Virus record (IMG/VR): IMGVR_UViG_3300045988_082950
Coordinates: 1 to 59,926 of that record
From: a virus
Reading direction: 5' to 3' (one strand)
Length of the DNA: 59,926 bases
The notes under the pieces are model-generated. The model was not told the origin of the DNA. It saw nothing but the letters and a program-made list of their open reading frames with translations, and did not search any database. Each line of letters opens with the position of its first letter. Position 1 is the first letter of the stretch. Of the stretch, positions 4,746 through 53,985 are shown in pieces. Made by a program: the position numbers and the translations under genes.

Positions 4746-5438
4746 CTAAAACGGACATTCATCCGCATTTCTAAGTTCCCATTCCATACCGTCCTGTGCA
4801 ACGCTCACATTTGCGCTAGGAACGATTTTCTTAATCTCTGCAATAATTCTATCCTTATCGCAAGTTTCTTTCGCTGTGTGGCATAATATGACGTTCTGCA
4901 ATGCATCTGACTTATTTGTTTCTACAATCCCCTTGCAAGTTTCCAGTTCGCAATGCCCCAGAATCTTATGTTCGTAATTTGGGATATCCCTGTCCACCAT
5001 ATCCGCTATGTAGTTGCACTCAATCAGCATGTGATCTACCGCCTGTTTCCTAAAACTGTAATGGCAATACTCCATGTCGGTCATGTATAATAGCTTCTGT
5101 CCGTCTGCCTTGATGTAAAATCCGTAATTGGTAGTTCCGTTATGTGGCAACTTGAAACACTGGATTGTGAAACTACCGTATTTCTGCATCTTCGGATTTT
5201 CTTCTTCATATGGTTTCCATACTGGGATTCCCATTTTCTCTATTGCGTCTGCGCTTTTGCTGTGGTCTTTATGGGTGTGTGAAACCGCACACCCGACCAC
5301 ATTTCTGATATTCCAGTCCAGTCCTCTCTTGATATCCATAATCGGCACACCACAATCAAGAATAAGGGATTTACCGTTGGAATCTGCTAGTATGTAGCAG
5401 TTGCCTTGTGAACCACTGGAAATACATTTAAGTTTCGT
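4746..5438 (-). CDS. metallo-beta-lactamase-fold hydrolase/nuclease (apparent ACG or other non-canonical start)
   Basis: HTHKDH (HxHxDH) motif. The conserved N-terminal strand region KLKCISSGSQGNCYILADSNGKSLILDCG is in frame upstream of the first ATG (5348). It has no ATG/GTG/TTG, and GAGGTG lies 8 nt before ACG 5436-5438. Confidence 0.75.
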   Translation of the reverse strand, partial: TKLKCISSGSQGNCYILADSNGKSLILDCGVPIMDIKRGLDWNIRNVVGCAVSHTHKDHSKSADAIEKMGIPVWKPYEEENPKMQKYGSFTIQCFKLPHNGTTNYGFYIKADGQKLLYMTDMEYCHYSFRKQAVDHMLIECNYIADMVDRDIPNYEHKILGHCELETCKGIVETNKSDALQNVILCHTAKETCDKDRIIAEIKKIVPSANVSVAQDGMEWELRNADECPF

Positions 5439-40180: not shown

Positions 40181-41041
40181 TTAGGCTGCTAGAGCCTCAT
40201 CTTCAACCTGTTGTGGTGTCTTGTAATCAAGAGCACTATGGCGCCTTTTTCGGTTGTAGAATGACTCTATATATTCAAAGAGTGCTGATTTAGCCTCCTC
40301 AAATGTGTAATATGTAGTTGTGTATACTTCTTCCTTTTTTAATACAGAATGGAAGGATTCGATGCAGGCATTATCATAGGGGTTACCCTTCCTGCTGAAT
40401 GAATGTAACATTCCCTGATCCTGTAAGTATTTCTCGAATTCTTCACTGGTATACTGGCTTCCTAGATCACTATGAAGCACTATTCCCGTTGTATCAGGGA
40501 TACTAAGGCATGCATTCTTTACAGCCTGTGTGGCAAGCTCAGCTGTTATATTTTTACCATATGTCCATCCTATGATTTTGCGATCATATAAGTCCATTAC
40601 GGATGCAAGATAAGTCCATCCTTCATTTACTACATGGATATATGTGATATCAGTTACAAGCTTTTTAAATACTGTATCAGCACTAAAATCACGATTAAGG
40701 ATATTTTCTTTATCATCAGGAACTGTACCCTGATTCTTTTGGTATTGATACTTTTTAACAACAATGCTTTTAATTTCAAGCTTTTTCATATGACGTTGAA
40801 CACGTTTTACTGAGCAGGGGATATTTCTATCATTAAGTTCTCTATGGATCTTAATTGCCCCGTAACGTTTCTTAAATTCGTTATATATTGATAATACTTC
40901 ATCGCTGAATTCCTTATATTCCTGTTCTCTTTTTGAAGGAACATGATTTAATGCAGCATAGTAAGTGCTTCTAGGGAATTTAAGTGCAGAGCACATCTGT
41001 TTTACAGTATACTTGTCTAAGTTAGCTTGAATAAAGGACAC
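40181..41041 (-). CDS. IS3-family transposase OrfB (DDE/rve integrase core)
   Basis: ..WTYLASVMDLYDRKIIGW..HSDLGSQYTS..GNPYDNACIESFHSVLKKE.. is the classical IS3/IS150 DDE region. Confidence 0.9.
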   Translation of the reverse strand: MSFIQANLDKYTVKQMCSALKFPRSTYYAALNHVPSKREQEYKEFSDEVLSIYNEFKKRYGAIKIHRELNDRNIPCSVKRVQRHMKKLEIKSIVVKKYQYQKNQGTVPDDKENILNRDFSADTVFKKLVTDITYIHVVNEGWTYLASVMDLYDRKIIGWTYGKNITAELATQAVKNACLSIPDTTGIVLHSDLGSQYTSEEFEKYLQDQGMLHSFSRKGNPYDNACIESFHSVLKKEEVYTTTYYTFEEAKSALFEYIESFYNRKRRHSALDYKTPQQVEDEALAA

Positions 41042-41534: not shown

Positions 41535-41747
41535 TAAGTAAAGGGGAATCCGACTGTAACGGTCATATCTGCGTAAGCTATGGTTCGGGTTTTCACCAAG
41601 CGGTCAAGTGTTGTGGGATTTCACTCGACCGATACCAGCCGGACGGTCTCTCACTGTCCTAACTGGTGTAGAGGAGATTACATACCTATCTCGGAAGAAA
41701 AGGTAAATGGTGTGTGCGTCCTGTCCAAAATGCTAAAAACAGGACAG

Positions 41748-41832
41748 CGGCAACGGTAGGTGTCGAACCTACTCAGCATTTCTGCCCTAACTGTTTAGCA
41801 AACAGCCCTCTTTACCGATTGAGTACGTTACC
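41748..41832 (-). tRNA. tRNA-Ser (anticodon GCT), class II with long variable arm
   Basis: Hand-folded: acceptor GGTAACG/CGTTGCC, anticodon arm GCTGT-TTGCTAA-ACAGT, 17-nt variable arm, T-arm GTAGG-TTCGACA-CCTAC. No encoded CCA. Confidence 0.8.
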
Positions 41833-45966: not shown

Positions 45967-46311
45967 TTAAATCAAATAAATATCTGTTATCTCCACAACA
46001 GCATCTCTTAATGTTTCTGCGGCTTCGTCCAAATTTGTATATTCTTCGTATTTTCCGATTTTTGGTTCTACCTTTTCACAGCATTCTACGATTTTAAACA
46101 AGTAGTTAATGCCGTCCATTTCGTTTACCATGTAAGAGCTACTATACTCTTCTCCGACATGGTAATTATATGGGTCTATGCCTGTTTCACTTTCGCCATC
46201 CCAGACATCCCAAAGTCTTACAACATCCCCAACCTCTAAATCTGGGATAGTTGTATCTGTACGCTCGCTCTCCTCGATTAACTGCATTGCTCTCTTTACT
46301 GTTTCATTCAT
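45967..46311 (-). CDS. hypothetical acidic protein
   Basis: 114 aa, rich in D/E. AGGAGG upstream. Confidence 0.7.
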   Translation of the reverse strand: MNETVKRAMQLIEESERTDTTIPDLEVGDVVRLWDVWDGESETGIDPYNYHVGEEYSSSYMVNEMDGINYLFKIVECCEKVEPKIGKYEEYTNLDEAAETLRDAVVEITDIYLI

Positions 46312-46377
46312 AATCTTTTTCCTCCTAATTTTAAATTTTTATTGACTAATCAAACCAATTATAATACTATATATACA

Positions 46378-46494
46378 TAGCTTTGCTATTGCGTAGCATC
46401 CATGATGTGCTACACAGTCGTTTCCGTCAACGGGGAAACGTTGGATTGAAACAATATTTTTTAGAAATTGGTACAGACTAGTCTGTACCTTTTT
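46378..46494 (+). ncRNA. candidate small RNA carrying a solitary CRISPR repeat (promoter 46342-46370, terminator 46470-46494)
   Basis: TTGACT-17-TACTAT, a 5' hairpin GTAGCA/TGCTAC (46393-46413), the repeat, then GGTACAGAC-TA-GTCTGTACC followed by TTTTT. The 5' end is estimated. Confidence 0.5.
46417..46452 (+). CRISPR. solitary type I-C-like CRISPR repeat unit (single copy, no array)
   Basis: GTCGTTTCCGTCAACGGGGAAACGTTGGATTGAAAC has 5' GTCG, a GTTTCC/GGAAAC stem and a 3' GGATTGAAAC handle, as in I-C repeats (GTCGC..stem..GTGGATTGAAAC). Confidence 0.6.
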
Positions 46495-46800
46495 CTATTC
46501 CATGCAGCCATCTTTTAAAAACTTGAATCCGGCTGGATTTTCTTCTATTAGTCCTTCATCTTCGAGCGACTCTAAACATTTGCTGTAGAAATAATTTAAG
46601 TTTTCCTCCCATGTCCCTGTCATCCATTTGGAATGAGTAATTTTAAATTCAGCGAATACATTATATTCTGGATATTTTTTGTCAGAAAAGCTAATAGGCT
46701 CTGAATAAATGTTACCAGAACTTACAAAAGCATATATTTTTGTAGTTGTCTTGCTTTCTTTTTTGATATCCTTGTCTAAATCAATTACATATTTTCTCAT
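46495..46800 (-). CDS. hypothetical protein
   Basis: 101 aa. AGAGGAGA lies 8 nt upstream. Confidence 0.7.
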   Translation of the reverse strand: MRKYVIDLDKDIKKESKTTTKIYAFVSSGNIYSEPISFSDKKYPEYNVFAEFKITHSKWMTGTWEENLNYFYSKCLESLEDEGLIEENPAGFKFLKDGCME

Positions 46801-47294: not shown

Positions 47295-47684
47295 ATGAGA
47301 ATAGTAAAAATTGAAAACAACAAAATTTATAGCACTTCTACACTTTGTGAAAAAACTGATATTTTTGAAATCGTGGAAAAAATTCCTGTCGGCTTTTTCG
47401 TATGGAATATCGGTGAAAACATGGGAACACATGAATATATTCCAGTTTGCGAAGATTTACACCCAGAAGACAAAGACAATTACGAGATCAACACGGCAAC
47501 ACTTAAAGCCGTAAAAGTTGCACCGGATGAATGGGAAAAATTCAACAAAGCGGCATCTTGGGGAGTTGGAAACCTCAAGCAAGCAGAAAAAGCCTTAAAG
47601 AGCAAACGCCACAGCTACACGTCCGAAAGAAAAAGAGCTGCCGCAGAACTCACAATTGAAATTTTCCGCAGAATTTGCGAATAG
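47295..47684 (+). CDS. hypothetical protein
   Basis: 129 aa. AGAGAGGA lies 7 nt upstream. Confidence 0.7.
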   Translation: MRIVKIENNKIYSTSTLCEKTDIFEIVEKIPVGFFVWNIGENMGTHEYIPVCEDLHPEDKDNYEINTATLKAVKVAPDEWEKFNKAASWGVGNLKQAEKALKSKRHSYTSERKRAAAELTIEIFRRICE

Positions 47685-47774
47685 CCGAAACGCTCCGATT
47701 TTGGAGCGTCAGCCGTGGGATGGTCTCCCGGCTCTGATGATGGCAGACCAGAAAACGAAAGAGAGGTTTTGAAC

Positions 47775-48014
47775 ATGGAAAAATTAAAGAGATTGCAGAA
47801 AAAGTTATCTGGATGTGGATATGATGCAGAATTAATTACTGTTTACAACCGCAACGGATCCGGTGAAAACGTTCCAGCATTGCGTATAAGCACAGACTAC
47901 GAAGGACAGTACCCAACTAAGGAGACGCACACGAAGATAAACGAGATTAGAAAATTGTGTAAAAATCACGTTACAGAATGTCGTGGATTTTATACCGCTG
48001 TATTTATTTACTAA
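47775..48014 (+). CDS. hypothetical protein
   Basis: ATG 47775 follows AGAGAGG. The track ORF extends to 47715. Confidence 0.6.
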   Translation: MEKLKRLQKKLSGCGYDAELITVYNRNGSGENVPALRISTDYEGQYPTKETHTKINEIRKLCKNHVTECRGFYTAVFIY

Positions 48015-53005: not shown

Positions 53006-53800
53006 TTAACATCCACATCCTGTATTGCATCCACAGCCGTTGTATGCATAACCGTAGAGGTTAGATGCAGGGAATGCTGGTACAGGTGTCGGTCTTACAG
53101 CATCAATAATCTGGTTTGTCTGTGCGCTCATGGCTGTAGTCAGAAGAGCATTCTGTCTATCCTGTGAAGCAGCTCTTCTCAAATCGTTATTCTCTGCCTG
53201 TAAGGTTGCAATCTTGTCATTTGTCAGGAAGTCAAGAATTGCTCTTGTTCCTGCCTGCTGGCTGTCGATAATGTCTCTTGTATTGCTGTTCATGGTGTTC
53301 TGTAAAGCACAGGTGTTAGTTGCTAAATTGTAATTAATTCCCTGGATAGCTTCACGGGTTTCACAGCAACAGTTAGCAAGCTGTGCCTGCAAAGCATTTG
53401 TATTCTGCATATTAGCAACCGTATCAGCGTTGATCGCCTGCTGGATGCCGAATCCAGTCTGCAAAATGTTTGTGTTGATGCCATTCATGCCGTTTTGCAC
53501 TGCATAAAATCCGTCACAAATTCCGTTTGTAATGCCATCAAGTTTTGATACAACCGCCTGATTATCAAATCCTCTCTGTAAGTCAGCCTGTGTAACTGCA
53601 CTTGTTGAGTATGGTGTCGCTCCACCATTATTGCCATTTCCCCAGCCACCGAAGCCACCGCCCCAGCCACCGAAAATTGCAAAAATTACAACTATAAACC
53701 AAAGCCATCCACCGTCAGCCCAGTTACCGTTGCCATTTCCGTTTCCGTCAATGTTCGCTACTAATGGAACTGATGCTGTGTTGCAATTCGAACCAAACAT
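53006..53800 (-). CDS. Gly/Trp-rich membrane protein with Q/N-rich coiled region and Cys-rich C-terminus
   Basis: GGAGGT lies 7 nt before ATG 53800. Features: NGNGNGN, GGWLWFIVVIFAIFGGWGGGFGGWGNGNNGG, CCCETR, and C-terminal NGCGCNTGCGC. Confidence 0.65.
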   Translation of the reverse strand: MFGSNCNTASVPLVANIDGNGNGNGNWADGGWLWFIVVIFAIFGGWGGGFGGWGNGNNGGATPYSTSAVTQADLQRGFDNQAVVSKLDGITNGICDGFYAVQNGMNGINTNILQTGFGIQQAINADTVANMQNTNALQAQLANCCCETREAIQGINYNLATNTCALQNTMNSNTRDIIDSQQAGTRAILDFLTNDKIATLQAENNDLRRAASQDRQNALLTTAMSAQTNQIIDAVRPTPVPAFPASNLYGYAYNGCGCNTGCGC

Positions 53801-53985
53801 AATTTTTACCTCCATAATTCATTTTTATATACATAATCTTGCAAGAATTAGTATCAAAGTTGATTAAAAAGTGTTATAATATATTTGTACGGATAGGGTA
53901 GCTCCCGATAAGCTGTTTGTCCTAACAGCTTCCGTACATTATCTGGTATAGGACATCTCACACTGAAAGGACAGGTGTTATTTTT

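Follow-up and report, generated by a model that had tools for sequence, protein, structure and literature searches.

The window analysed here is the whole of a viral record of 59,926 nucleotides (IMG/VR IMGVR_UViG_3300045988_082950). On its plus strand, in a 183-bp gap between two minus-strand open reading frames, lies a stand-alone small-RNA gene (46342-46497) made up of a predicted promoter, a leader of two hairpins, a 36-nt repeat resembling those of type I-C CRISPR systems (GTCGTTTCCGTCAACGGGGAAACGTTGGATTGAAAC), a 17-nt segment and a terminator (Table 1). The first-pass annotation had described a solitary I-C-like repeat with its own promoter and terminator, and the positions it gave for the repeat, promoter, hairpin, terminator and gap all proved correct; the description itself holds on the plus strand, with 12 covarying variants and a predicted RNA of ~120 nt. 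It had also counted one repeat and no cas genes. Because the 36-mer is present in a single copy in the window, searched at up to three mismatches, and because the window ORFs examined yielded no Cas domain, the unit is a solitary repeat unit and not a CRISPR array.

Table 1. Positions of the small-RNA gene's parts, of the flanking genes and of a protospacer-like site in the window
Feature	Position	Strand	Description
Promoter-side flanking gene	45967..46311	-	114 aa, acidic (pI 4.06)
Promoter	46342..46370	+	Predicted; -35 TTGACT 46342-46347, 17-nt spacer, -10 TACTAT 46365-46370; score 9/12
Predicted transcription start	~46377	+	
Leader hairpin A	46377..46389	+	AUAGC-UUU-GCUAU (fold); helix 1, 5 pairs, one U-A changed to C-G in L141
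Leader hairpin B	46391..46415	+	GCGUAGCA / UGCUACAC; helix 2, 8 pairs, 5 changed on both sides; contains the GTAGCA/TGCTAC hairpin at 46393-46413
I-C-like pseudo-repeat	46417..46452	+	2-nt 5' overhang GU; stem 46419-46425 / 46434-46440; 12-nt tail 46441-46452
Spacer-like segment (psi-spacer)	46453..46469	+	AAUAUUUUUUAGAAAUU, 17 nt, A/U-rich
Terminator hairpin	46470..46497	+	GGTACAGAC-TA-GTCTGTACC and TTTTT at 46470-46494; as RNA GGUACAGA-CUAG-UCUGUACC, then a U run
Convergent flanking gene	46495..46800	-	101 aa, pI 5.08; stop codon abuts the terminator
Protospacer-like site	53351..53387	+	TTC PAM 53351-53353, then 34 nt matching an L188 I-C spacer at 27/34

Searches of the neighbouring proteins against Pfam, PHROGs, NCBIfam and the PDB by sequence, together with AlphaFold models, gave nothing usable. 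The 114-aa protein has no family, PDB or NCBIfam match and its structure model is unusable (pLDDT 50). In its place other phages have unrelated genes (105, 135 or 75 aa), so it is not an obligate partner, and in some phages an unrelated 110-aa gene replaces the convergent 101-aa gene. The unit lies in a variable accessory region of the phage. The first-pass annotation had pictured the neighbourhood as an anti-defence locus of small acidic proteins with a ribbon-helix-helix autoregulator. Of the two flanking proteins, that of 114 aa is acidic and that of 101 aa has a pI of 5.08. No relation of the neighbours to known anti-CRISPR proteins could be detected, and the supposed autoregulator, a 65-aa protein, was not confirmed as ribbon-helix-helix. 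The lineage to which the phage belongs is a very common, temperate one of human-gut Lachnospiraceae, and in the assembly collection 122 blocks are indexed for its integrase alone.

The predicted RNA folds into four hairpins (z = -5.0). The pseudo-repeat has a UCAA tetraloop closed by a G-C pair and a GG bulge, ends in the 12-nt tail UUGGAUUGAAAC and carries a predicted Cas5c cleavage site. The loop of leader hairpin B bears the motif CCAUGAUG, which is CCAUGACG in some variants. The terminator hairpin, a candidate 3' cap for a crRNA-like product, is the sole terminator-like site in the surrounding 2-kb region and is read on the plus strand; on the minus strand no T run follows this hairpin. 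An alternative minimum-free-energy fold, in which GUUUC pairs with the GAAAC of the tail, was rejected, being impossible in variants whose stem is CCGCA/UGUGG. A coding reading of a 32-codon ORF across the unit was likewise rejected, as variants carry stop codons. Taken singly, the signals are not statistically striking: the 2-kb region contains 13 promoter-like sites where 9.1 +/- 2.6 are expected and 1 terminator-like site where 1.0 is expected, and the 10-mer GGATTGAAAC occurs 7 times at up to one mismatch against 5.7 expected. It is the comparative evidence that establishes the feature.

That evidence comes from 12 distinct variants, and one more with a degenerate tail, recovered from related gut phage contigs. 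All four hairpins are kept, with compensatory changes at 12 of the 29 base pairs and 97.7% of cells paired; none of 500 shuffles reached this level of pairing, and controls with slid pairing partners were paired at 19-55%. The four hairpins are under selection. In the repeat, helix 3 is 100% paired with 5 of its 8 pairs compensatory, and its stem has been exchanged wholesale into seven versions, UUUCC/GGAAA, UUACC/GGUAA and CCGCA/UGUGG among them. The terminator helix (helix 4) is also 100% paired; it occurs in six versions, and its top pair changes from A-U to U-A or U-G. Every G-U wobble cell in the repeat and terminator helices fits the plus strand. The promoter is identical in -35, -10 and spacing in 11 variants. 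The promoter and leader of the variant L141 are unrelated in sequence, yet it retains TTGACT-17-TATGCT and the same hairpin plan; the whole stem of its hairpin B is replaced (CACAUAA/UUAUGUG) while the loop motif is retained.

Two stretches stand apart from this turnover. In the 12 variants the tail varies at its last base only (C/U), the exception outside them being the copy in L189, whose tail is degenerate (UUGGAUUUAAAA-like). The first 12 nt of the psi-spacer (AAUAUUUUUUAG) are invariant in every copy, including all 13 IMG/VR contigs matched by a leader-only pattern; variation begins at position 13 and recurs at positions 16-17, and the L002 version is 24 nt long. Leader, stem, 3' end of the guide and terminator loop are variable or recombining among copies. 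Given this variability elsewhere in the unit, we estimate the chance of such 12-nt invariance among closely related phages at ~0.1, and regard it as modest evidence.

The case for an affiliation with type I-C draws on geometry and on repeat identity. In the canonical I-C repeat a 7-bp stem with a pentaloop is flanked by a 5' overhang of 2 nt and a 3' overhang of 11 nt ending (U)GGAUUGAAA[C/U]; Cas5c reads the cut site and the handle downstream of it, and does not depend on the loop or on the 5' overhang (PMC8524198). The viral unit shares with canonical repeats, such as that of Roseburia hominis, the GU overhang, a 7-bp stem starting at C3, here covarying, and a tail of the form ...GGAUUGAAAC/U, and pairwise alignments give 27-31 identical positions. 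It differs in its length (36-38 nt vs 32-33 nt), its tetraloop, its 12-nt tail and its stem, which is extended by the GG bulge and a further pair and is a perfect 10 bp in L141, as well as in being solitary, without cas genes or an array. The longer tail is not without parallel: a Cas3-Cas5d-Csd1-Cas7 locus (L056) has arrays in which the stem is followed by TTGGATTGAAAC, with the same 12-nt tail geometry. The gut I-C repeats of L149, L157, L155 and L187 have the 11-nt tail GTGGATTGAAAT, to which the unit adds one U, and recognition by gut Cas5c is unproven because of this extra U. By analogy with the recognition described above, the conservation pattern (free stem sequence, fixed stem base and 3' tail) matches what Cas5c would read. 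Two viral contigs (L185, L184) hold related I-C-type mini-arrays of two spacers, with the same tail (G, then TTGGATTGAAAY) and A/T-rich spacers.

The first-pass annotation had expected a host I-C array with a near-identical repeat. No such array was found, the best repeats ranging from 28/36 to 31/38 identical. When 185,579 species genomes were scanned for exact matches to GGAAACGTTGGATTGAAAY, a pattern that covers the last 19 nt of the repeat in one stem variant only, no array emerged, and the four matches obtained were chance ones inside genes. No match was returned by blastn of the 36-mer against plasmid and phage collections or of the 1-kb region against phages. A metagenome tandem scan for arrays ending in TTGGATTGAAAY recovered many I-B and I-C arrays, none with the unit's stem among the matches listed. 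Rfam returned a spurious CRISPR-DR7 match (E = 9.8), which is uninformative since its repeat models also miss a genuine I-C array used as a control. Among the loci compared, the nearest gut I-C array repeat comes from L155, which belongs to the same IMG dataset; it agrees with the window unit at 28/36 positions and with the L141 variant at 31/38. An exact match to the L155 Cas7 (P0423) lies on a contig of 3.5 kb. One apparent natural I-C repeat with a TTGG tail (L035) was dropped, as its array proved ordinary, with point mutations in two terminal repeats.

The identity of the host was approached from the phage as well. A relative of the phage is integrated in a Clostridia genome, and one of its protein clusters is labelled Roseburia sp., a label taken from one cluster member. 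R. hominis has a I-C system with the repeat GTCGCTCCCTGTGAGGGGAGCGTGGATTGAAAT (PMC4645204). A tblastn search of Cas5c against plasmids found no Lachnospiraceae, following Cas5c and Cas7 homologues towards the host locus returned no protein named Roseburia, and the protein clusters of Cas5c carried no taxonomy. We consider a Roseburia-like host lineage plausible. The protospacer-like site in Table 1 is a separate observation that bears on host assignment and on I-C pressure on the phage lineage: the spacer comes from a gut Lachnospiraceae I-C array (L188, of the L149/L188 species), three relatives of the phage (L001, L146 and L168) match it better, at 28/34, and every relative keeps the TTC PAM. 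It was the only spacer to match, as the 222 distinct spacers of our first I-C array set gave only 15-nt chance matches to the phages.

In the window, the related phages, the prophage flank and the fetched I-C loci, no convincing target for the 17-nt segment was found. The best site, TTA followed by AGTATATTTTAACATTT, overlaps the extended -10 box of cas3 in L149, L188, L190 and L191. Of 15 pairing positions it matches 12; position 2, in the seed, is mismatched, and its PAM is TTA instead of TTC. An equally good site arises in 3.8% of composition-matched shuffles of the region, or ~0.1 counting both candidate promoter regions. In the other I-C loci that were fetched, no site for the viral guide was found.

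These loci do contain units of the same layout. In three gut Lachnospiraceae I-C lineages (L149/L188/L190, L157-L166 and L187), a solitary pseudo-repeat, an A/T-rich guide of 23-32 nt and a terminator hairpin occupy the interval from cas3 to cas5c. For every such unit a partial target flanked by TTC lies in the same intergenic (cas promoter) region, mismatched only at positions 6 and 12 in L149 and 6, 11 and 12 in L157, with no mismatch over the first 15 nt in L187. A DUF3990 gene pair adjoins the unit in two of the three lineages examined. The layout and mechanism of such host I-C units have been described, and their crRNA-like RNAs carry a handle of 11 nt and terminate within the 3' hairpin (bioRxiv 10.1101/2024.12.27.630466). 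The phage unit resembles these host solitary units (CreR / CRISIS) in its degenerate-stem pseudo-repeat, conserved tail, short A/T-rich guide and non-repeat 3' hairpin. The host units, however, sit in cas operons and target their own locus, and the phage unit differs from them in its shorter guide (17 nt), the extra U of its tail and a long structured leader that they lack.

Two published classes of RNA bracket the unit. The Racrs are solitary repeat units that act as RNA anti-CRISPRs and are borne by phages and plasmids (Camara-Wilpert et al., Nature 2023, PMC10651486). The validated RacrIC1, from a Bifidobacterium pseudocatenulatum prophage, lies 11 nt behind acrIC5, with which it is co-transcribed, and matches the repeat of its target system at 29/34 positions (PMC10651486). 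Like the Racrs, our unit mimics a single repeat, lies between genes of a virus and has a predicted promoter of its own; its surroundings, a variable accessory region, hold no second repeat, whole or partial, in the window or in any related phage contig, and the predicted promoter is 47 nt upstream of the repeat, well inside the 250 bp that the Racr survey allowed, with an equivalent in L141. Its repeat, GU(C) followed by a hairpin and a GGAUUGAAAC-type tail, falls in the 78-85% range of identity to real repeats. Unlike RacrIC1, it stands alone, antisense to its neighbours and with no known acr gene adjoining, it has a structured leader of ~40 nt and a terminator of its own, and the 12 nt that follow its repeat are invariant. 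It is absent from the compared part of the published list of solitary repeat units (SRUs).

Cracrs are viral crRNA-like regulatory anti-CRISPR RNAs, described in the preprint of Liu et al. (bioRxiv 10.1101/2024.10.29.618823). According to that preprint, CracrVA1 consists of one repeat-like sequence, a short spacer-like sequence and a rho-independent terminator; I-C candidates exist, including two-spacer arrays; shortened type I-F guides yield complexes with fewer backbone subunits; and the defining feature is a match of at least 9 PAM-proximal bases to a host CreA/CreR guide or to a PAM-flanked cas or toxin promoter (10.1101/2024.10.29.618823). Our unit has the three parts of CracrVA1 in the same order, and the viral arrays L185 and L184 resemble the two-spacer I-C form. 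For the defining match, the best candidate in the fetched loci is the cas3-promoter site above, which does not demonstrate it, and the single-repeat form with a terminator as 3' cap is described in the preprint for type V-A Cracrs, not for type I.

We propose that the unit is a phage gene for a I-C crRNA-like RNA that hijacks host Cas proteins, and we tentatively favour, at somewhat less than an even chance, its being a regulatory guide of the Cracr kind. Transcription, processing by Cas5c, loading into Cascade, the target and the effect on immunity are all inferred here. Hypothetically, the unit's own promoter would yield a primary RNA of ~120 nt, in which host Cas5c would recognise the pseudo-repeat hairpin and its tail; the tail would then serve as the 5' handle, to which Cas5c remains bound. 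Cas7 and Cas8c would assemble along the 17-nt A/U-rich segment as far as the terminator hairpin, which would substitute for the missing second repeat. The product would be a Cascade cut down from seven Cas7 subunits to about three, and Cas subunits would thereby be diverted from crRNAs that target the phage. In the version we favour, the short guide would bring this Cascade to an A/T-rich host promoter beside a TTC or TTA PAM, probably a cas promoter or one under CRISPR supervision, where pairing over at most 17 bp would repress transcription without recruiting Cas3. We lean to a guide because guide positions 1-12 are invariant, host I-C units share the layout, the hairpins are under selection and the host lineage is plausible. 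Counting against it are the lack of a target with a clean seed, a guide shorter than those of the host units, the extra U of the tail and the degenerate tail of the L189 copy.

The two functions put forward by the first-pass annotation, an RNA decoy and a phage-chosen guide with the terminator hairpin acting as the 3' hairpin, are the two leading explanations, and the three host I-C units lend support to the second. As a pure decoy, or Racr, the repeat would be bound and perhaps cut by Cas5c and would soak up Cas5c, Cas7 and Cas8c into aberrant subcomplexes, the 17-nt segment being a targetless platform or linker. We regard this as a real possibility, if one that we would not expect to prevail. 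The unit has the published operational hallmarks of a Racr candidate, being solitary, intergenic, viral, repeat-like in sequence and structure and within 250 bp of a predicted promoter; RacrIC1 was validated with only 29 of 34 positions identical; any highly expressed non-targeting crRNA-like RNA lowered interference (PMC10651486); and SRUs are about ten times commoner than Cracr candidates in published surveys (2,103 vs 219). The failure to find a target for the 17-nt segment points the same way. A decoy, however, leaves unexplained why 12 nt after the tail are invariant despite diverging stem, leader and terminator loop, and why the layout of host regulatory units is copied so closely; no near-identical host repeat was found in the genomes, plasmids, phages and metagenome arrays searched, and the compared part of the SRU list lacks the unit.

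If the RNA does carry a guide, that guide could instead support interference, the unit being a one-spacer mini-array through which host Cascade-Cas3 would cleave a competitor phage, a plasmid or the chromosome, leading to superinfection exclusion or host takeover. Virus-borne mini-arrays against related viruses are known, and handle, guide and 3' hairpin are all present. Yet the guide is 17 nt (24 nt in L002) against the 33-37 nt of I-C spacers in the arrays examined, it is A/T-rich and of low complexity, resembling promoter DNA rather than a sampled protospacer, and no match to it was found in the window, the related phages or the fetched loci; we consider this explanation very improbable. 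Unlikely, though less so, is a small RNA or cis element unconnected with CRISPR, such as an antisense regulator, an attenuator or a protein-binding site, whose likeness to a repeat would be coincidental or vestigial. The unit does lie antisense between two genes, and the 5' part of the 114-aa gene overlaps its promoter. Folding of the minus strand is just as good (z = -6.9), five C-A cells in leader helix 2 become G-U pairs on that strand, a weak minus-strand promoter-like site lies inside the repeat, and the L189 tail is mutated. Against this, the unit and its own promoter persist when the flanking genes on both sides are swapped for unrelated ones, and the T run is found on the plus strand only. 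The exact 12-nt I-C tail directly follows a covarying hairpin that starts with GUC, an arrangement whose chance occurrence we estimate at ~1e-8 per 60 kb, and that tail is conserved across the stem swaps.

A more specific form of the regulatory-guide proposal can be imagined, which we hold to be unlikely as a whole. Here a miniature capped I-C Cascade with about three Cas7 subunits would sit on the extended -10 of the host cas3 promoter, or on another CRISPR-supervised promoter, and silence the nuclease arm, possibly escaping the phage's own protein anti-CRISPRs. The stem swaps, which occur among phages that are otherwise nearly identical, would reflect an arms race over recognition by Cas5c variants or by a discrimination mechanism of the host, and the CCAUGAUG motif would be a second protein-binding module.

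No new principle is needed to accommodate the unit, as RNA anti-CRISPRs (2023) and viral crRNA-like regulators (preprints of 2024 to 2026) cover both leading readings. Its natural series of stem-swapped variants sets the parts that host Cas5c must read (stem base and tail) apart from the stem sequence, which is free to vary, and makes experiments to distinguish decoy from guide straightforward. If its function were confirmed, a I-C crRNA mimic would be present in a very common temperate phage lineage of gut Lachnospiraceae. The finding also draws attention to the regulatory repeat units inside gut I-C loci, which the phage RNA may imitate; if that imitation is real, the self-regulation of CRISPR would be among the points attacked in the gut microbiome.

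The unit is a candidate small-RNA gene composed of a promoter, two leader hairpins, a type I-C-like pseudo-repeat, a 17-nt guide and a terminator. Re-reading the window sequence confirmed every element that the first-pass annotation had described, including the solitary state of the 36-mer, which is single-copy in the window when up to 3 mismatches are allowed. Taken singly, these signals are weak: promoter-like sites are not enriched in the region holding the 9/12 promoter, the single terminator-like site seen near the unit equals the chance expectation, and the 10-nt tail, with at most 1 mismatch, is not enriched over expectation. The case for the unit therefore rests on comparison.

Locations of the unit, of other window features and of compared loci
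Feature	Location	Strand	Detail
Promoter-like site	window 46342-46370	+	TTGACT-17-TACTAT; score 9/12
Leader hairpin	window 46393-46413	+	GTAGCA/TGCTAC
Leader hairpin B	window 46391-46415	+	loop motif CCAUGAUG
Pseudo-repeat (36-mer)	window 46417-46452	+	sequence GTCGTTTCCGTCAACGGGGAAACGTTGGATTGAAAC
Guide	window 46453-46469	+	A/U-rich
Terminator hairpin	window 46470-46494	+	GGTACAGAC..GTCTGTACC, then TTTTT
Gap housing the unit			183 bp, between ORFs 45967-46311 (-) and 46495-46800 (-)
Type II hammerhead ribozyme	window 47683-47752	+	Rfam RF02276; 63.6 bits vs gathering score 37; E = 7e-11
Protospacer-like site	window 53351-53387	+	TTC PAM (53351-53353) + 34 nt; inside ORF 53006-53815 (-)
Metallo-beta-lactamase-fold gene	window 4746-5348	-	also L134 398-1090 and L138 715-888
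Transposase-like ORF	window 40181-41041	-	phrog_157; E = 2e-98
tRNA-Ser(GCU) gene	window 41747-41832	-
Integrase and sigma fragment	L147 10001-11932
Disrupted I-C locus (possible)	L155 4482-6405
Unit copy, degenerate tail	L189 2390-2420	-	TTGGATTTAAAA in place of TTGGATTGAAAT
Host unit (L149, L150, L188, L190, L191)	L149 8830-9081		pseudo-repeat GTCTTTTGATTTTATATCAAATGTGGATTGAAAT; guide AATTTTATTTAAGGTCATC...; target TTC then AATTTAATTTATGGT, mismatches at positions 6 and 12 only
Host unit (L157-L166)	L157 6400-6701		pseudo-repeat GTCTGGTATTCCAGTGGATTGAAAT; guide AATGGTATTTTTAATGAAAAAG..; target TTC then AATGGAATTTAAAATGAA
Host unit (L187)	L187 6640-7000		pseudo-repeat ...CGGCATATCCGCCGATTGTGGGTTGAAAT; guide ATCTTATACTATTTTCG..; target TTC then ATCTTATACTATTTT, 15/15
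Small I-C-type arrays	L185 9030-9215; L184 7440-7600	-

Look-ups of the neighbouring protein and the integrase, together with three pattern scans of IMG/VR, recovered 12 distinct versions of the unit and one more with a mutated tail. A four-hairpin structure was drawn by hand and scored on an alignment of nine variants. Standard pairs fill 97.7% of 261 cells, and both sides have changed in 12 of the 29 pairs; none of 500 shuffles equals the observed pairing and covariation values, and pairing falls to 19-55% once pairing partners are slid. The repeat hairpin is 100% paired yet is the most variable part of the unit (stem versions CGUUUCC/GGAAACG, CGUUACC/GGUAACG, CGCCGCA/UGUGGCG and CGCCACA/UGUGGCG), and a short ORF across the unit is interrupted in the variants. 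We read the unit as a conserved gene for a structured RNA. It folds well on the plus and minus strands alike, and one leader pair would point to the minus strand. Judged from sequence, the plus strand is favoured as the transcribed one because it bears the promoter, because only there does a T run follow the terminator, because the repeat is oriented as such repeats are transcribed, and because the G-U pairs of the repeat helix and the terminator helix are compatible with this strand alone.

In the version on contig L141 the promoter and leader sequence is unrelated, but TTGACT-17-TATGCT and both leader hairpins are kept, and the repeat stem is a perfect 10-bp form (CGUUACCCCA/UGGGGUAACG). The loop motif of leader hairpin B, which reads CCAUGACG in some variants, is retained even here, where its entire stem and the remaining leader are replaced; neither a decoy nor a guide function accounts for it. 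Among the phages the flanking genes on both sides are swapped for unrelated ones and the unit is absent from some relatives, which marks it as an accessory module complete in itself. The neighbours had been described as small acidic proteins and a ribbon-helix-helix autoregulator in a layout typical of anti-defence loci. Acidity holds for the 114-aa protein (pI 4.06), which has no detectable relatives and an unusable structure model; for the 65-aa protein a ribbon-helix-helix identity could not be confirmed, and the neighbour genes could not be linked to anti-defence. A copy in L189 has a degenerate tail with the remainder intact, the 12-nt guide start included, and may be an inactivated version or an escape variant.

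The canonical I-C repeat has a 2-nt GU overhang, a 7-bp stem, a pentaloop and an 11-nt tail, of which Cas5c recognizes the cut site and downstream handle and does not read the loop or 5' overhang (PMC8524198). The unit shares the GU and the 7-bp stem from C3, but its tail UUGGAUUGAAAC is one U longer, its stem is extended and its loop is a tetraloop. Across variants the stem base and tail are fixed and the stem sequence is free, which matches the prediction from Cas5c recognition. Equal stem-plus-UUGGAUUGAAAC geometry occurs in a cyanobacterial locus (L056) encoding Cas3, Cas5d, Csd1 (Cas8c) and Cas7, and NCBI names the Cas5 protein of its relatives I-C Cas5c. The ending TTGGATTGAAAC is found in a type I-B array (L037) too, there without an adjacent stem; by itself the tail is thus not diagnostic, and we take tail plus adjacent stem to be diagnostic for I-C.

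The near-identical host array that the first-pass annotation had expected was not found in genome, plasmid, phage or metagenome searches. Scanning species genomes with the 19-nt 3' part of the repeat gave chance matches inside genes only, plasmid and phage collections searched with the repeat gave no match, and a metagenome tandem-tail scan returned many arrays, none with the unit's stem among the matches listed. Rfam holds no informative match to the unit, a negative that carries no weight here, and the unit is not among the entries compared from the published table of solitary repeat units. The highest pairwise identity is to a gut I-C array repeat (GTCGTTCCCCACGAGGGAACGTGGATTGAAAT) of L155, from an IMG dataset shared with phage relatives; the window unit matches it at 28/36 and the L141 version at 31/38, and identity of the unit to the R. 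hominis repeat is 27/37. For scale, the validated RacrIC1 inhibits a system whose repeat it matches at 29/34. The contig bearing the I-C locus of L155 is an IMG/VR 'viral' one; cas5c there, preceded by a 473-aa ORF, is truncated to 132 codons, and the locus is possibly insertion-disrupted.

Human-gut Lachnospiraceae I-C loci, obtained through Cas5c and Cas7 in search of the host system, carry a unit of their own. In all three lineages the interval from cas3 to cas5c holds, on the opposite strand, a solitary pseudo-repeat with an A/T-rich guide and then a terminator hairpin behind it, and each unit has a partial, TTC-flanked target in its own intergenic region. Such a unit is the crRNA-like regulator already known from type I-C (bioRxiv 10.1101/2024.12.27.630466): an RNA with an 11-nt handle that pairs partially next to a TTC or TTA PAM and whose 3' end falls within a hairpin other than a repeat. 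Copies of these regulators on phages are called Cracrs, the type V-A prototype consisting of one repeat-like sequence, a short spacer-like sequence and a rho-independent terminator (bioRxiv 10.1101/2024.10.29.618823). The window unit is laid out like both, its guide being shorter at 17 nt. Two of the three lineages have an insertion of a DUF3990 gene and a 146/147-aa gene ahead of cas5c; none of the papers searched connects DUF3990 with CRISPR, and the two genes may form a CRISPR-supervised pair not described before. Two unrelated IMG/VR contigs (L185, L184) bear small I-C-type arrays with a strong promoter, A/T-rich spacers, differing stems and a tail equal to the unit's (G followed by TTGGATTGAAAY). 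L185 has two near-identical spacers and then a truncated third repeat. These arrays look like multi-guide forms of the unit's idea.

The guide start AATATTTTTTAG, the first 12 nt after the tail, is invariant in every copy, among them 13/13 IMG/VR contigs found by a leader-only pattern, which carries no bias for the guide. Neither the window nor the prophage flank nor the I-C loci examined yielded a clean target for the guide. A spacer of the L188 I-C array matches the protospacer-like site of the window at 27/34 and that of relatives L001, L146 and L168 at 28/34, and the TTC PAM is exact and conserved in all relatives; by a binomial estimate, about 1e-2 such matches are expected by chance if the PAM is ignored and about 2e-4 if it is required. 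Match and PAM together imply that this Lachnospiraceae species has met relatives of the phage; the site is a diverged protospacer and points to the species as a host of related phages. In that species TTA followed by AGTATATTTTAACATTT is the only TTN-flanked site with at least 12 of 15 guide pairing positions matched. It lies in the extended -10 (TGTTAAAAT), 25-43 nt upstream of the cas3 start codon, with a seed mismatch at position 2, and 3.8% of composition-matched shuffles of that promoter region contain an equally good site. As a candidate guide target the site is suggestive, not evidence.

The phage is temperate, siphovirus-like, about 60 kb and 37% G+C, with genes for major head protein, portal, large terminase, endolysin, RecT, SSB, anti-repressors and a serine integrase. 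The exact integrase occurs in 122 blocks of the assembly collection, nearly always on 56-62 kb contigs, and the lineage is common. In an integrated relative, the 129-kb contig L147, the serine integrase directly adjoins a 162-aa fragment annotated as a sporulation-specific sigma factor, beyond which lie SCIFF, its maturase, SecDF and other Clostridia genes; in the protein cluster of one flank protein, a member is labelled Roseburia sp. Integration here appears to have interrupted a sporulation sigma gene, a case similar to the skin element of Bacillus. The hammerhead ribozyme lies 1.2 kb from the unit within one shared variable region, between ORFs 47295-47684 (+) and 47715-48014 (+) and overlapping the ends of both. 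The transposase-like ORF, within the phage genome, adjoins the tRNA gene. A metallo-beta-lactamase-fold gene adjoins SSB and RecT; in relatives it has weak matches to the anti-Pycsar Apyc1 family PF23023, and it may be a second anti-defence gene of the lineage.

We consider it highly probable that the phage encodes, in this unit, a mimic of a type I-C crRNA that acts on host Cas proteins, a statement that covers both leading readings jointly. A regulatory RNA unrelated to CRISPR is unlikely, given that an exact I-C tail stands directly behind a covarying hairpin and that the module moves among differing gene contexts. An interference mini-array is most improbable, its guide being too short and without a match found. 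Within the mimic reading, we tentatively and slightly favour a regulatory guide of the Cracr type over a decoy because the guide start is invariant, the layout of the host units is copied and the cas3 promoter offers a lead. Against such a guide, its target is not demonstrated, it is short, the extra U of the tail is unseen in the gut arrays sampled, and Cracr candidates are far fewer than solitary repeat units in published surveys; a Racr-type RNA acting only as a decoy is a possible, if somewhat doubtful, alternative.

Both candidate mechanisms, guide and decoy, have already been described. Particular to this unit are its organization as a stand-alone gene rather than the tail of an acr operon, its structured leader with a conserved loop motif, its terminator-capped 17-nt guide, and the wholesale swapping of stems between near-identical phages.
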